Translations under genes and position numbers: made by a program | Origin: a virus | Virus record (IMG/VR): IMGVR_UViG_3300042379_000679 | Reading direction: 5' to 3' (one strand) | Length of the DNA: 48,663 bases | Shown here: one piece after another, positions 1 to 48,663 of the stretch | Layout: the number at the start of each line of letters is the position of its first letter | Numbering within the stretch: the first letter of the stretch is position 1 | Notes under the pieces: generated by a model | What the model was told of the DNA's origin: nothing | What the model saw: only the letters and a program-made list of their open reading frames with translations | The model's database searches: none

Positions 1-374
1 AAAGCACCGGCCTGATCGGCCGGTGTGAAGTGGTTGAAGCTCAGAAAGCAAAGCACCGGCCTGATCGGCCGGTGTGAAGTGGTTGAAGCTCAGAAAGTAA
101 AGCACCGGCCTGATCGGCCGGTGTGAAGTGGTTGAAGCTCAGAAAGTAAAGCACCGGCCTGATCGGCCGGTGTGAAGTGGTTGAAGCTCAGAAAGCAAAG
201 CACCGGCCTGATCGGCCGGTGTGAAGTGGTTGAAGCTCAGAAAGCAAAGCACCGGCCTGATCGGCCGGTGTGAAGTGGTTGAAGCTCAGAAAGTAAAGCA
301 CCGGCCTGATCGGCCGGTGTGAAGTGGTTGAAGCTCAGAAAGTAAAGCACCGGCCTGATCGGCCGGTGTGAAGT
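1..374. repeat. Tandem array of a 49-bp unit, left part (7.6 units). It continues across the circular junction with 48292..48663.
   Basis: The unit AAGCACCGGCCTGATCGGCCGGTGTGAAGTGGTTGAAGCTCAGAAAG[C/T]A recurs with an exact 49-bp period. The only polymorphic base sits at 49,98,147,196,245,294,343 = C,T,T,C,C,T,T. The array breaks at 375. Each unit holds a perfect hairpin, CACCGGCC-TGATC-GGCCGGTG. Confidence 0.97.
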
Positions 375-7944: not shown

Positions 7945-7979
7945 CCCCTTGAGCTTGTTGCTTGAGGGGTCTTTTTTTT
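7945..7979 (+). terminator. Rho-independent terminator of the rightward early operon
   Basis: 10-bp stem CCCCTTGAGC/GCTTGAGGGG (two G-U pairs) with loop TTGTT, followed by T8. Confidence 0.8.
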
Positions 7980-8337
7980 AATACTGCACATCGATTTCAC
8001 GCACAGAATACGGGTAACAGCCTCTCGGAGGTAATCTCCTGACAAAGTTACCCACATTGACCTGTTCGTCGTCCGTAGGTGGCTTTACAGGCTCGCTATT
8101 GGCAATCCCTGCCATCTTGTTTCTACGCTTGATCTCAGCAGCAAAAGCTCTTGCCCCAGGCATCCCTAGCGACTTTTTAATTTTTGCTTTCCTGCACTCC
8201 TTGCAAACAACAGCCGAGTTTCCCGCCAAAGCCTCCTTGTCATTATTGACAATAGAGACAGTGACGGTTAAGTCGTTGATCCCACAGTAGATGCAGGAGC
8301 GTTTATCACGCCCCACAATGGTTATCCAGTTTGTCAC
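7978..8337 (-). CDS. Zinc-finger protein, degenerate HNH-like (119 aa, GTG start)
   Basis: CIYCG...(28 aa)...CKECRKAK resembles the CxxC...CxxC frame of HNH nucleases but lacks the D-H catalytic pair. The GTG start overlaps the stop of the frame-B ORF 8334..9032. Confidence 0.55.
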   Translation of the reverse strand: MTNWITIVGRDKRSCIYCGINDLTVTVSIVNNDKEALAGNSAVVCKECRKAKIKKSLGMPGARAFAAEIKRRNKMAGIANSEPVKPPTDDEQVNVGNFVRRLPPRGCYPYSVREIDVQY

Positions 8338-8466
8338 GATTCGATCCTTCTTCCAAGCATCACGCCGTCGATTTCAACGTATTCAAATTCATCCTGAGTT
8401 GGGCCAGGCATCAGGCAATCCTCGGCATAGTCAACGCCGCATGGGCAATTCCCATCCTCATCGCAA

Positions 8467-9300
8467 TCAACTGAGAAGATCACGGGCAACCATGGGTTCT
8501 CTGGTAACGGTGTTCCGAAGTGATTGTTCAAGTATTTTCCATGCTGTTGCTGCCACAACCGGAACCTGACCGTTCCCAAGGGCTTTAAGCCTTCCCACCC
8601 TATCGGCCACCCCATGATCCAACCGACCCACAGAGGGTTCAGCTGACCACCAGTCTTGGATTCCTCTCTCTCTCTCTCTCTCTCTCTCGCAAAGACCTGT
8701 CTGGGCAGTTGGTCCAGCCGATTCCGTACAGTCCCGTCCTTGTTGATCGATGTGGTCTTCTGACCCGCAGTATCCTTCCAGTCCCGGCTGTTGGGAGTGA
8801 CCCACTTCTCTTTCGCACAAGATCCAGATGCGTTTTCTGAGGTGGTTAGCTCCACAGTCGGCAGCAGATAACACTGTCCACGCCGCATCAAACCCGAGGT
8901 CGGCCATTTCTCCGAGAACTCTGTCGAGTCCTCTTGAGGTAAGGGCTGGGACGTTTTCCAGGAAAACGAATCGGGGTTCCACTTCGCGAATGACTCGAAC
9001 GGCTTCAAAGAAGAGCGATGATTTTTCGCCATGTATACCTTCCCCCTTGCCAGCCAGACTGATGTCCGTGCAAGGAAATCCGGCAGCGATCACATCCACG
9101 TAGTTTCGCCAGCCTGTTGCGTCAAAGGTCTTTATGTCATCGTGGATATGCATCTCGGGGAGGAACCCATCGGCAATCCTCTGAGCCAGCACCTTGCGGC
9201 AATATGGATCAATCTCCACAGCACAAACAGGCGTATGCCCCAGTAGTAATCCACCAAGGATTCCTCCACCAGCCCCAGCAAATAGATGCATTTCCCGCAT
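8467..9300 (-). CDS. DNA (cytosine-5) methyltransferase
   Basis: Motifs: FAGAGGG (I), GFPCTDIS (IV), ENV (VI), RKRIWIL (VIII), then WWSAEPSVGRL...RLKALGNGQVP (X). GGAG lies 6 nt upstream of the ATG at 9300. Confidence 0.85.
   Translation of the reverse strand: MREMHLFAGAGGGILGGLLLGHTPVCAVEIDPYCRKVLAQRIADGFLPEMHIHDDIKTFDATGWRNYVDVIAAGFPCTDISLAGKGEGIHGEKSSLFFEAVRVIREVEPRFVFLENVPALTSRGLDRVLGEMADLGFDAAWTVLSAADCGANHLRKRIWILCEREVGHSQQPGLEGYCGSEDHIDQQGRDCTESAGPTAQTGLCERERERERGIQDWWSAEPSVGRLDHGVADRVGRLKALGNGQVPVVAATAWKILEQSLRNTVTREPMVARDLLS
8664..8688. repeat. (CT)12/(GA)12 dinucleotide microsatellite inside the methyltransferase gene
   Basis: 25 nt of perfect alternating CT. It encodes ERERERER in the methyltransferase frame. 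Confidence 0.97.
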
Positions 9301-9354: not shown

Positions 9355-10635
9355 TCAAACAGCAATCACTCTTCTCATATTACCGCATAAATGCGTGTAA
9401 CCTAACGAGATACTATCCACGCAGTCGTCATGTACATCCGCAGGAGTCCCAGTAAAGGAATCGATCTCCTCGAAGCATGCATCCGTCCAGCCACCAAGAA
9501 CATAGAAAATGTTTCCAGCTGATGCCGCGCGGCTAAAAGGGACTGCCCTTGTCAATTTGTTTGACCCAGGTGAACTCCAGGCAACACGCCTTCCGGCCAG
9601 ATTCTTCAGTTGATGCTGCAACAACCGCTTCCCAGCCGAGCCAGGCTCAACCTCAATTACAATCGTTGTTCCAGGTCCATCCTCATCCGATGTTTGCGAG
9701 ATTTTTGGATCAACGTCCTCAGCCGAATATTGCTGGCGAATCTGGTCAAAGATGATCACCTTCTCTGTCCCTGGAATCAGGCCCATCAGAGTCCCAACCG
9801 TGTAATCCGACCTTCGGCCCACAGTCGCAGCACAGTCCCAACTTCGGCACATAATGAGCCTCTCGGGTATCGGTCCTTGCCATGGTCTGATCCACGATGA
9901 CTTCATCAAAGCCCCGTCCGTATCGCAAAACAGCCCTTCAACTTCCTGTTTGTAGAAAGCCCCATCATAAGCAGCCTTAAGGCTTTGCACGAAGAAGTCA
10001 GGGTTGAACGTGTTGGAATATGATGGAGCATGGATCATCTCAGCAATGCCAGCCTGGATGGCTCGGTATTCCCACCTGTTTTTCCCTCGAGGGGTAAAAG
10101 TTGCCCATAACTTACCGGGATTCTTTCTTAAGCGGCCCAGCAGAACTTTATAGGTATCTTCATCGCAAAAGCTGGCCTCATCCATGTACACAGCCCCAGC
10201 ATTAGTCCCCCGCAGCCTGTCCGGCTTATCCGCAGATCTCCACAAAATTGTCCGGTCACCTTTGACCTTCGTTTCCATATCCGTTTTGTTGTGGCTCATG
10301 ATCAGGCCAGACTGACCGTAAAGCTCTTCAAACATACGGAACGTGGAGTCTTTGAGGATCGTAAAAGTCGGTGCAACGACAATCGTGAGCGTCCCTTTAG
10401 GCTGGTTCATAATCTCGATCACGCCAGCACGAGTCTTCCCAGCACCAACCCCACCCACAAAAAATTTCTGCTTCGATGGAGAGACCCAGAACTGCAACTG
10501 CTGTGGAGTAAAGGTACTTACATTATGTATCTGACGACGACCCGTCTTCTCCTTCCGAAGCTGCGAGAACAGGGAGTTCTGATTCATTCGTTCCAGCCGG
10601 AAGTCGTCCTGATCCATCGACATATTTTTTGACAT
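9355..10635 (-). CDS. terL: Terminase large subunit
   Basis: Walker A GGVGAGKT and Walker B VYMDEA. The C-terminal nuclease-type region reads SWDCAAT...DYTV...HDDCVDS. The ORF is trimmed to the ATG at 10635 (GGGGAA upstream). Confidence 0.9.
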   Translation of the reverse strand: MSKNMSMDQDDFRLERMNQNSLFSQLRKEKTGRRQIHNVSTFTPQQLQFWVSPSKQKFFVGGVGAGKTRAGVIEIMNQPKGTLTIVVAPTFTILKDSTFRMFEELYGQSGLIMSHNKTDMETKVKGDRTILWRSADKPDRLRGTNAGAVYMDEASFCDEDTYKVLLGRLRKNPGKLWATFTPRGKNRWEYRAIQAGIAEMIHAPSYSNTFNPDFFVQSLKAAYDGAFYKQEVEGLFCDTDGALMKSSWIRPWQGPIPERLIMCRSWDCAATVGRRSDYTVGTLMGLIPGTEKVIIFDQIRQQYSAEDVDPKISQTSDEDGPGTTIVIEVEPGSAGKRLLQHQLKNLAGRRVAWSSPGSNKLTRAVPFSRAASAGNIFYVLGGWTDACFEEIDSFTGTPADVHDDCVDSISLGYTHLCGNMRRVIAV

Positions 10636-11290
10636 TTTCGTTCCCCTGGTACTGCCTCGAGAGTTCTGAACTAATTTCTGCCAGCGTTTTCCCTGCGATT
10701 CGCTGCTCAACCTGGTCGTTCGACATCTGCCTGTCCCAGAACTGCAACTTGACCTCAGGTTTGGCGAATTCCATACCCCTGGTACGCTCAAGCCACCATG
10801 CCGCAGGAATCCAGTTCCCCTTCTTGGCTGCGTCCAGGATCACGTTTACACAAAGGTCTCGAGTCGCGTTCTGGGCATTATCAAAATCTATTTTTCGCTG
10901 TGGGTTCTTCTTCATGTACAGCCAGAGCGTTTTGCGATGCACGCCGATAGCTTTAGCGATTGCACTGATCTCATAACCCATCTTTGCCGACTCAATAATC
11001 TTGGCCCAGTGATTACGTATCTTCTTCTGAGGCTGATTGTTAGCCAATCCCTTGCGAGTCAGGAACGCCGGCTTCGTCGTCATCAATTCCAGATTGGCTT
11101 CAACGTCATCACTAAAGTCGTAACGAGTATCAAGATTAGGAACCTTAACAGACTTCTTGGGCTTAACTTTAGGAGTAGGCTCGACTTCGGTTTCGGTTTC
11201 GATCTCGGCTTTATGAACAGTTGTTTTCGGTGGTCGTCCACGCTTTTTAGGCGTTTCGCCGGATTCAGATGGGGCTGATTTCTTTGCCAT
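10523..11290 (-). CDS. terS: Terminase small subunit (HTH-containing)
   Basis: It lies directly upstream of terL. HTH segment ISAIAKAIGVHRKTLWLYMK, an AAWWLER motif and a basic N-terminus. The ORF is trimmed to the MAKKS start at 11290. Confidence 0.65.
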   Translation of the reverse strand: MAKKSAPSESGETPKKRGRPPKTTVHKAEIETETEVEPTPKVKPKKSVKVPNLDTRYDFSDDVEANLELMTTKPAFLTRKGLANNQPQKKIRNHWAKIIESAKMGYEISAIAKAIGVHRKTLWLYMKKNPQRKIDFDNAQNATRDLCVNVILDAAKKGNWIPAAWWLERTRGMEFAKPEVKLQFWDRQMSNDQVEQRIAGKTLAEISSELSRQYQGNENVKKYVDGSGRLPAGTNESELPVLAASEGEDGSSSDT

Positions 11291-48097: not shown

Positions 48098-48291
48098 ATC
48101 ATAACATAAGCAGGTGTGCATAACAAGATGGGAGTGAGGGGGAGGCTTTTTCTGTTTTTTATTTTTTTCTCTTTTAAGAATTCTCGACAAAGCGCATGGC
48201 CGACACGCCTGGGGCCACGGCTCCGAAAAAATCGCGAAATTGTGTCACATAAACTAGGTGTCCATGTCATGAAAACACCCTGGAAACAAGT

Positions 48292-48663
48292 AAAGCACCG
48301 GCCTGATCGGCCGGTGTGAAGTGGTTGAAGCTCAGAAAGCAAAGCACCGGCCTGATCGGCCGGTGTGAAGTGGTTGAAGCTCAGAAAGTAAAGCACCGGC
48401 CTGATCGGCCGGTGTGAAGTGGTTGAAGCTCAGAAAGTAAAGCACCGGCCTGATCGGCCGGTGTGAAGTGGTTGAAGCTCAGAAAGCAAAGCACCGGCCT
48501 GATCGGCCGGTGTGAAGTGGTTGAAGCTCAGAAAGCAAAGCACCGGCCTGATCGGCCGGTGTGAAGTGGTTGAAGCTCAGAAAGCAAAGCACCGGCCTGA
48601 TCGGCCGGTGTGAAGTGGTTGAAGCTCAGAAAGTAAAGCACCGGCCTGATCGGCCGGTGTGAA
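48292..48663. repeat. Tandem array of the same 49-bp unit, right part (7.6 units)
   Basis: Same unit and period. The polymorphic base at 48340,48389,48438,48487,48536,48585,48634 = C,T,T,C,C,C,T. The window ends inside a unit. Confidence 0.97.
48537..48663. other. 127-bp terminal overlap identical to 1..127, indicating circular closure of the assembly
   Basis: Register and polymorphic bases match (48585=C vs 49=C; 48634=T vs 98=T), and both segments end in ...GGTGTGAA. No other register reconciles the two C/T patterns. Confidence 0.85.

Follow-up and report, generated by a model that had tools for sequence, protein, structure and literature searches.

The IMG/VR virus record IMGVR_UViG_3300042379_000679 (48,663 nucleotides; this whole 48.6-kb stretch is referred to below as the window) contains a gene for a C5-cytosine DNA methyltransferase (hereafter methylase), all features of which read on the minus strand. 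The DNA of this gene is open in two frames, A and B, and we propose that the locus probably encodes a heterodimeric C5-cytosine methylase whose alpha and beta chains are read from two frames of one DNA stretch. The alpha chain (frame A) would comprise the large catalytic domain with motifs I-VIII, a disordered, open linker and the motif X helix, and the beta chain (frame B, +1 relative to A) would supply the small DNA-recognising domain, i.e., the variable region with its W-x-T-P modules and motif IX. By analogy with M.EcoHK31I, a two-chain enzyme discussed below, alpha and beta are expected to assemble into the usual bilobed enzyme. We infer that beta is translated independently and forms a heterodimer with alpha; the methylated sequence would then be set by beta. 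A broader proposal, to which we give about an even chance, is that the whole family consists of obligate two-chain enzymes with the entire small domain in the +1 frame, and that in the lineage of the window a GA repeat acts as a one-hit switch of both chains.

Two open frames and the selection acting on them

Frame A opens with an ATG at 9300, which GGAG precedes by six bases, and ends with a stop at 8467 (8467..9300, 277 aa). Frame B (8334..9032, 232 aa) starts at an ATG at 9032, just beyond motif IV of the alpha chain, and stops at 8334; the two open reading frames (ORFs) overlap for 188 codons, and B passes the A stop by 133 nt, so that it is not strictly nested. A Shine-Dalgarno-like sequence, AAGGGGGAAGG (9033..9050), can be read 5 nt upstream of the frame B ATG. 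A sequence-only reading of this DNA had reported frame B as open for 232 codons, from 9032 to 8334, and coupled through its stop to the next gene. The ORF listing gives the same frame, and the GTGA overlap (8334..8337) is formed by the frame B TGA (8336-8334) and the GTG (8337-8335) of the next ORF, 7978..8337. The strings and coordinates quoted there for the two frames, (GA)12, WVTPNSRDWKD and LNPLWVGWIMGWPIGW are likewise all correct on re-reading.

The dual frame extends far beyond the window. Of 80 relatives from IMG/VR (41-53% identity to frame A, GC content 46-65%), 79 have a +1 frame without stops along at least 94% of the gene, and the median open share of the +2 frame is 17%. Bacterial loci were also retrieved with the frame B motif alone, which yielded 445 loci in species-representative genomes from many phyla; in the best 80, which were examined, the -1 frame always contains an ORF of similar length with C5-methyltransferase motifs (PC in 97.5%, ENV in 98.8%, GN in 94%). 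The frame B family numbers at least 2786 database proteins and at least 592 viral loci, and the matches listed are without a Pfam domain and nearly all labelled ‘hypothetical protein’ or unnamed. For example, the +1 ORF has 240 codons against 246 of the methylase in the Manatee Spring freshwater-spring myovirus, and 298 against 304 in Acinetobacter phage ABMM1. The +1 frame is also open over most of mycobacteriophage Che9d gp80, over the C-terminal half of the RcWata methylase and over the Escherichia coli PT62 prophage gene. In tblastn searches, frame B matches annotated methylase genes of unrelated phages in their +1 frame; as independent evidence of homology these matches were set aside because they partly mirror the conservation of frame A, an effect that is controlled here by the +2 frame and the codon phases.

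The methylases of Rhodobacter phage RcWata (OP009287, 615-1892) and Che9d (gp80, 1197-1955) represent distant subfamilies, with a different N-terminus and PPCQ/GNAI motifs. Their +1 frame contains W.TP.A.D modules and NP....WLMG.P..W, where the annotated frame amounts to Gly/Arg-rich filler. It seems that the dual frame is older than the subfamily studied here in detail.

The openness of frame B results from selection and not from chance or composition. The number of stops expected was obtained by permuting synonymous codons while keeping the codon usage of each gene. The window gene has 2 stops in the +1 frame where 6.9 are expected, and its longest +1 ORF has 207 codons against 107 expected (P=0.005). 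In the relatives, permutation predicts 5-9.5 stops and a longest ORF of ~70-140 codons, compared with the observed 2 stops and 240-308 codons, and the +2 frame matches the permutation expectation. When the gene is divided into regions, frame B has no stop over the A motifs I-VIII in 71 of 71 loci (2.7 expected in each), and frame A has none over the variable region in any of the same 71 (3.35 expected in each); the third frame of these loci has 6.7 stops against 6.0 expected. The depletion of stops thus falls exactly where the respective frame is under no selection at the amino acid level.

The beginning of the gene points in the same direction. In the start, NTGAATGAG, the codon for Asn-2 is AAT in 72 of 72 loci, which gives ATGAATG and hence a frame B start; in most relatives, beta starts 4 nt after alpha and is co-extensive with it. 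This frame B ATG has been lost in one relative (L066) and in the lineage of the window, the gene of which begins with ATGCGGGAAATG, and both have stops in the N-terminal part of frame B. The window lineage then uses a conserved internal ATG (MAKN/MAKD), and in L066 frame B is open only from codon ~143.

The entropy of the three codon phases, calculated over 74 loci, shows which frame is selected in each part of the gene. Over codons 1-160, the third position of A is the most variable, i.e., A is selected; from the first W-P-T-P module through GG.LNP.WVEWLMGWP.GWTDLKPL, the third position of B is the most variable, i.e., B is selected; and from LKAIGNGQVP to the end it is again the third position of A. 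Accordingly, EWLMGWP is fixed in B, while the frame A residues on the same bases vary between D, H and N and between V, M and L. Identity among relatives in frame A is 0.63-0.89, then 0.09-0.17 in the linker and then 0.80, and frame B reaches an identity of 0.30-0.36 in the first part of the variable region, with A and the +2 control at 0.12-0.17 there. The hand-over of selection from B to A takes place on the heptamer CTTAAAG (8583..8589), which reads L-K-A in A and L-K in B, with the phase switch at this codon. It is present as CTTAAAG in 63 and as ATTAAAG in 8 of the 80 loci, that is, as (C/A)TTAAAG in 71. In C5-methylases, the large domain consists of motifs I-VIII together with X, and the small domain, composed of the variable region and motif IX, is responsible for every specific contact with the DNA (PMC3404938). 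Judging from the predicted domains, the A/B/A mosaic of selection follows this split exactly.

Proposed alpha and beta chains and the rival explanations

Frame A is the large, catalytic domain of a C5-cytosine methyltransferase, intact but half an enzyme. PF00145 matches its aa 2-165 (E 1.9e-36), to which M.HhaI can also be aligned, and phrog_363 matches aa 1-259 (E 8e-66). Motifs I, IV, VI, VIII and X, in this order, are present in the single chain. Motif I, LFAGAGGG (S-adenosylmethionine binding, 9262..9285), and motif IV, GFPCTD with the catalytic Pro-Cys (9064..9081), were located by sequence and by the M.HhaI alignment. Motif VI, FLENVP (8947..8964), which reads FSWKTSQ in frame B, is evident from the sequence, and its Asn codon is AAC in 73 of 74 relatives, fixing Thr in frame B. 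Motif VIII, HLRKRIWIL (8818..8844), follows from the M.HhaI alignment and the codon phases, and selection moves from A to B downstream of it. Motif X, LKALGNGQVPVVAATAW (8539..8589, present as LGNGQVP), lies where the third position of A is the most variable phase. Between VIII and X, where the target recognition domain (TRD) and motif IX of a single-chain enzyme are located, frame A is a linker (aa 162-216, 8653..8817) that is unconstrained and stop-free and is predicted to be disordered. The sequence-only reading had assigned all catalytic motifs to frame A, which holds for I, IV, VI, VIII and X; the motif IX region is selected in frame B.

The AlphaFold2 (AF2) model of frame A, built from a 70-row alignment, agrees with this division. 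Its predicted local distance difference test score (pLDDT) is >90 in residues 1-165 and lies at 79-97 in the motif X helix (241-266), at a predicted template modelling score (pTM) of 0.72, and is only 36-48 in residues 173-229, a stretch that takes in the ERERERER run and a motif IX-lookalike, WWSAEPSVGRLDHGVADRVG. Foldseek with this model aligns ~168 columns, i.e., the large domain only (M.HaeIII, 4e-15; M.HhaI, 1e-14).

Frame B of the window holds one variable-region module, WVTPNSRDWKD...RLDQLPRQVFA (8688..8804, with WVTPNSRDWKD itself at 8772-8804), then a repeat-encoded spacer and then the motif IX-like LNPLWVGWIMGWPIGW (8595..8642), the frame A mirror of which is EPSVGRLDHGVADRVG. W-P-T-P modules are the conserved feature of the frame B variable region, and the WVTPNSRDWKD-type module is also found in the matches P0036, P0057, P0064 and P0066 and in the +1 frame of RcWata. 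The canonical motif IX is L-T-x-R-E-x-A-R-L-M-G-F-P. By its resemblance to this form, by analogy with M.EcoHK31I, and by a weak profile result, there being no curated model, LNPLWVGWIMGWPIGW looks like motif IX; the codon phases agree. Frame B matches phrog_1008 (E 1.6e-17) and phrog_26627 (E 1.7e-13) in PHROGs, and together with the family-wide conservation these matches bear out the earlier suggestion that the second frame is itself methyltransferase-related. The 70 frame B homologues include P0002, which is 39% identical and shares the MAKN start as well as the tail; a MAK(N/D) start is kept in L003, L004, L087-L094 and P0006.

As a side observation on annotation, phrog_26627, phrog_27243 and phrog_35493 (unknown function) and phrog_1008 (‘DNA methyltransferase’) all match the frame B product. 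Several PHROGs of ‘unknown function’ are probably fragments of beta-frame proteins, and phrog_1008 may mix frames.

Past the frame A stop, frame B continues into a Cys-rich tail of 44 codons (8334..8466; ..CDEDGNCPCGVDYAEDC..FEYVEIDGVMLGRRIES) with four cysteines and a confidently predicted beta-hairpin (AF2, pLDDT 82-84), for which no family match was found. The tail evolves as coding sequence of frame B: five of the seven substitutions compared with L003 hit third positions of B. It is kept in the 39%-identical relative (P0002/L004). In L087, L089 and L090, the gene caller gives the tail as a separate 49-aa gene that starts from a GTG, which in the window is at 8483. The tail (ORF 8337-8483, frame B residues 184-232) may be either fused to beta or a separate 49-aa protein.

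The closest counterpart of this architecture is M.EcoHK31I (YGGCCR), an E. coli C5-methyltransferase that is a heterodimer (Lee, Kam & Shaw, 1995; descriptions in PMC2836561 and PMC3404938). Its alpha chain carries motifs I-VIII and X, its beta chain carries motif IX, and activity requires association of the chains; in vitro, beta does not need its first 42 residues, and its translation can begin at internal Met codons (PMC2836561). In both cases, beta lies in the other reading frame of the alpha gene, the split of the motifs matches the codon-phase mosaic described above, and, in the window, beta likewise starts well inside alpha. Unlike in M.EcoHK31I, beta of most relatives is co-extensive with alpha rather than nested, and beta of the window overruns the alpha stop by 133 nt with a Cys-rich tail, in a gene that has a GA microsatellite. 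The source name ‘EcoHK31I’ was not found among the matches listed.

Several observations weigh against the two-chain proposal. The published TRD of M.EcoHK31I is in alpha, whereas the constrained variable-region modules are in beta here, and the likeness between the two systems is one of gene architecture known from description. The profile matches of frame B are confined to PHROGs, with no matching model in Pfam, PF00145 included, or in NCBIfam; short C-terminal profiles likewise gave no methylase match in Pfam (chimera and pure A) or in the PDB (chimera only). AF2 gives a poor model for frame B on its own (mean pLDDT 59.7, pTM 0.24), which is expected for a fold that depends on its partner, yet provides no positive evidence. 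In the window lineage, the few substitutions at 9032-8830 are mostly non-synonymous in frame B, and the first ~70 residues of beta may be passenger sequence. Both chains are predicted from the sequence, and the A/B/A mosaic is equally expected from a frameshifted single chain.

This last explanation is a rival to the two-chain proposal. It holds that one polypeptide is made through two programmed frameshifts, from A (motifs I-VIII) by +1 into B (variable region and motif IX) and by -1 back into A (motif X), with AGAATCTGGATTGTGGCC and GGGTGGACAGACTTAAAGCC as the sequences at issue and the heptamer CTT_AAA_G / C_TTA_AAG as the -1 site. The selected frames, A, B, A, are indeed in the canonical domain order, which the shifts would restore in a single chain, and the B-to-A hand-over falls on a heptamer that is nearly invariant (71 of 80 loci) and contains A_AAG, a shift-prone A-site motif for -1 frameshifting in bacteria. 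Moreover, a profile of the A-B-A chimera aligns with the catalytic domains of DNMT3A/3B end to end (E 2e-5 to 2e-4), and the pure frame A profile aligns only over positions 39-123 in this comparison. However, as a slippery X_XXY_YYZ site the junction (C_TTA_AAG or A_TTA_AAG in 71 of the 80 loci) is good in its A-site half and poor in its P-site half, where UUA would have to re-pair to CUU, and several loci have CTTAAGG, CTCAAAG or CTGCGCT instead. The invariance of the heptamer is also expected from overlapping constraint, namely RLKA in A and DLKP in B. After motif VIII, a shifty +1 site cannot be recognised, and the spacing up to the first W-P-T-P module varies by 0-12 codons. Frameshifting leaves unexplained why no stops occur in frame B along the 160 codons upstream of the supposed +1 site, or in frame A along the ~100 codons that would be skipped (both in 71 of 71 loci), and why the frame B ATG is conserved (AAT in all 72 loci); besides, the single characterised enzyme with such a gene architecture functions in the form of two chains (PMC2836561). 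We consider frameshifting an improbable explanation and prefer two chains because that reading accounts for the conserved beta start, the open N-terminus of beta and the open alpha linker. The open, unconstrained N-terminus of beta would be a run-in from a shared ribosome-binding site, dropped when an internal start is used, and the alpha linker would stay open because the ribosome must read through it to motif X. In the lineage of the window, beta would be made from the internal ATG at 9032 with its own Shine-Dalgarno sequence, and would have the Cys-rich tail and the GTGA coupling. The conserved frame B start, the Shine-Dalgarno sequence and the depletion of stops lend indirect support to the view that both chains are translated and that both are required.

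Another objection is that only frame A has a function and that codon usage or composition creates frame B as a shadow ORF, whose database family would be an artefact of gene calling. Over motifs I-VIII, conservation of frame B (0.41-0.66) does resemble that of the closed +2 control (0.39-0.63), RefSeq PGAP annotates frame A alone in the E. coli prophage PT62 (the sole prophage examined in this respect), and the absence of frame B from Pfam and NCBIfam, as well as its poor AF2 model, would fit such a view. Nevertheless, this objection can be given hardly any credence. The permutations that yield 5-9.5 stops where 2 are observed, with ORFs of 240-308 codons, use each gene's own codons, and the effect persists from 46% to 65% GC and across many phyla. 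Furthermore, of the codon phases it is the third position of B that varies most in the variable region and motif IX, where frame A is disordered and free of constraint; the ATG of frame B does not vary; and the non-overlapping tail of B evolves as coding sequence in this lineage.

Two further points concern the integrity of the gene. A methylase broken by an indel, or a pseudogene, was excluded given that pure frame A scores 223 bits against phrog_363 and A/B hybrids 184-196 bits; the pseudogene or frameshift-error reading is excluded also by the fact that both frames are intact in dozens of independent genomes, isolates included. In-frame fusions of the catalytic domain to frame B are absent from the matches listed, with one probable frameshifted exception (P0034), and a query with an A-B-A chimera returned solely pure frame A proteins among its best 120 matches. 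P0034 (European Nucleotide Archive, ENA; 1563-bp contig) joins frame A motifs I-IV to the remaining part of frame B, and in P0070 (ENA, 6376-bp contig) a frame B-like body is followed by a NRVDRLRAGGNGVVP end of the frame A type. These two fusions could be sequencing errors or genuine recombinant forms.

The GA tract

The gene of the window contains a (GA)12.5 microsatellite (8664..8688; Tandem Repeats Finder: period 2, 12.5 copies, 100% matches), the only dinucleotide array in the window, which encodes ERERERER in A and REREREREE in B. Its place in alpha is the linker, and in beta the stretch that separates the TRD module from motif IX. Relatives that share the gene order have 0 units (TTTGCACGCGACGAATCC; L003, L093, L094), 17 units (L087-L091) or 16 units (L092), compared with 12 in the window. 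Since the alleles differ among close relatives and the tract-free L003, L093 and L094 keep both frames, the tract is recent, dispensable and unstable. On this comparison, the repeat is evidently a late, lineage-specific addition to a putative linker that tolerates insertions in both frames. L092 and L087 are 99.83% identical over 3580 nt, with four mismatches and a single gap of 2 nt, which is in the tract. In L092, alpha enters the third frame and stops at 223 aa, and the N-terminal part of beta enters the C-terminus of alpha.

The sequence-only reading had predicted that gain of one GA unit would move ribosomes from frame A to frame B, with loss of motif X, that loss of one unit would lead into the third frame, and that the repeat is prone to slippage. 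Simulation reproduces this arithmetic: one additional unit gives a 322-aa fusion of the alpha N-terminus to the beta C-terminus without motif X, and one unit less takes A into the third frame with a stop after 8 codons; with three units more or less, both frames are kept. The slippage-prone character of the repeat also agrees with the four lengths in relatives (0, 12, 16, 17), one of which is naturally out of frame. The suggestion made there that the methylase may switch between two alternative C-termini finds no support as an account of what frame B is for: the frame is conserved as an ORF, has a start of its own and occurs in thousands of GA-free relatives. Neither would there be a neat swap of tails, as a change by one unit in either direction would break both chains at once. 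Rather, under the two-chain proposal, changes by three units would just lengthen the (ER)n/(RE)n spacer, and a change by one unit would truncate alpha before motif X and part the beta TRD from motif IX, thereby acting as a single-step OFF switch.

The tract might be a neutral, recently expanded microsatellite in a permissive linker, its out-of-frame lengths being loss-of-function alleles or assembly errors, and we regard this explanation as evenly poised. It is favored by the tract-free loci, from which the repeat is dispensable; by the tolerance of the site for insertions in both chains (a disordered linker in alpha, a position between the TRD helix and motif IX in beta); and by the fact that a single out-of-frame allele has been seen, in a metagenome contig. 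The five contigs with 17 units were retrieved by exact protein identity and are not independent evidence for a preferred length. On the other hand, four length alleles exist among genomes that are 93-99.8% identical, one pair differs by essentially one unit alone, and 12-17 perfect dinucleotide units are well within the slipping range of phase-variable bacterial methylase genes. Switching off could also profit a phage where methylation-dependent restriction targets its modification. What counts against a switch, besides, is that the out-of-frame allele of L092 could be an assembly error or a dead mutant. From the sequences, phase variation by the tract is plausible, and the raw material for switching, i.e., length alleles, exists in the comparative data; an adaptive switching role we would suggest tentatively, at a little under even chances. 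If it existed, a one-step methylase OFF repeat would be a form of bet-hedging between hosts with methylation-sensitive and methylation-dependent restriction.

Phase variation of methylases is treated in a section of PMC3711429. The tract resembles phase-variable methyltransferases (Type III mod and others) in being a perfect repeat within a coding region, with frame-breaking changes of unit number between near-identical genomes (PMC3711429, PMC6902483). It differs from phasevarions in that the methylase is a phage-borne, Type II-like orphan C5-methylase and the repeat lies in dual-coding sequence, so that one slip would affect two proteins; the repeat is also missing from sister genomes.

Related systems, implications and surroundings of the locus

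Lambda Rz/Rz1 is an embedded, same-strand pair of overlapping phage genes, in the +1 frame, whose products form one complex. In contrast to Rz/Rz1, the overlap here covers nearly the whole gene (~240-300 codons in most relatives, 188 in the window), and the products would be two domains of a normally single enzyme. M.AquI of Agmenellum quadruplicatum (CYCGRG) is likewise a split C5-methylase with two subunits that must associate (PMC3404938). Its split is linear, with IX and X together on the second chain, and differs from the present one, in which X is on the chain with I-VIII and the parts are interleaved.

In the literature searched on overlapping, dual-coding and frameshifted methylases, a family-wide dual frame is not described, M.EcoHK31I being the sole productive lead. 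The two-frame architecture has a precedent of 1995, and repeat-driven switching of methylases is already known in kind. What appears to be new relative to that literature is how widespread and deep the dual frame is, the clean A/B/A mosaic of selection, the placement of a whole small domain in the beta frame and a microsatellite within dual-coding sequence of a phage methylase.

If the two-chain proposal is correct, thousands of phage and prophage genes annotated as ‘DNA cytosine methyltransferase’ are half-annotated, their specificity-determining chain being filed as ‘hypothetical protein’ or left uncalled. Expression of alpha from a recoded or codon-optimised gene would silently destroy beta and give a dead or unspecific enzyme. 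Under the broader, family-wide proposal, the assignment of the M.EcoHK31I TRD to alpha would also need revisiting, and among the conserved same-strand overlapping gene pairs of bacteria and phages this one would probably be the longest and the most widespread. With a division of labour in which each frame is constrained solely where the other serves as a spacer, the family offers a natural data set of hundreds of diverged pairs, overlapping by 240-300 codons, for the study of two proteins encoded in one sequence.

The methylase locus is located just downstream of the large-terminase gene (9355..10791; Terminase_3/6N/6C). A scan for promoters and terminators around the gene found nothing exceeding shuffle expectation, and no restriction enzyme partner is evident beside the methylase gene. 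The ORF linked to frame B by the GTGA overlap (7978-8337, minus strand) encodes 119 aa with two CxxC pairs (CIYC...CKEC) and has no Pfam match; it is kept beside the methylase in all close relatives (L003, L087-L092). According to precomputed Pfam matches, the close relative L003 (JGI 3300043525 Ga0480307_0000055) encodes a CsrA homologue, Prim-Pol and the anti-restriction protein ArdA, as well as a YqaJ exonuclease, an integrase and a SNF2-type helicase. That ArdA occurs along with a possibly switchable methylase suggests an investment in restriction evasion.

Both ends of the window (1-374 and 48288-48663) carry the same 49-bp tandem array, with 8 + 8 copies, each unit of which holds the palindrome CACCGGCC-TGAT-CGGCCGGTG. 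Because the spacing is 29 and not 49 bases when the arrays are joined end to start, the contig probably breaks within a longer array of uncertain copy number. A packaging site, an origin and a terminator array are possibilities for the function of this array. Near it, at 1516-1569, an imperfect 8-bp tandem repeat, GTGTCACT (6.5 copies), may be iteron-like.

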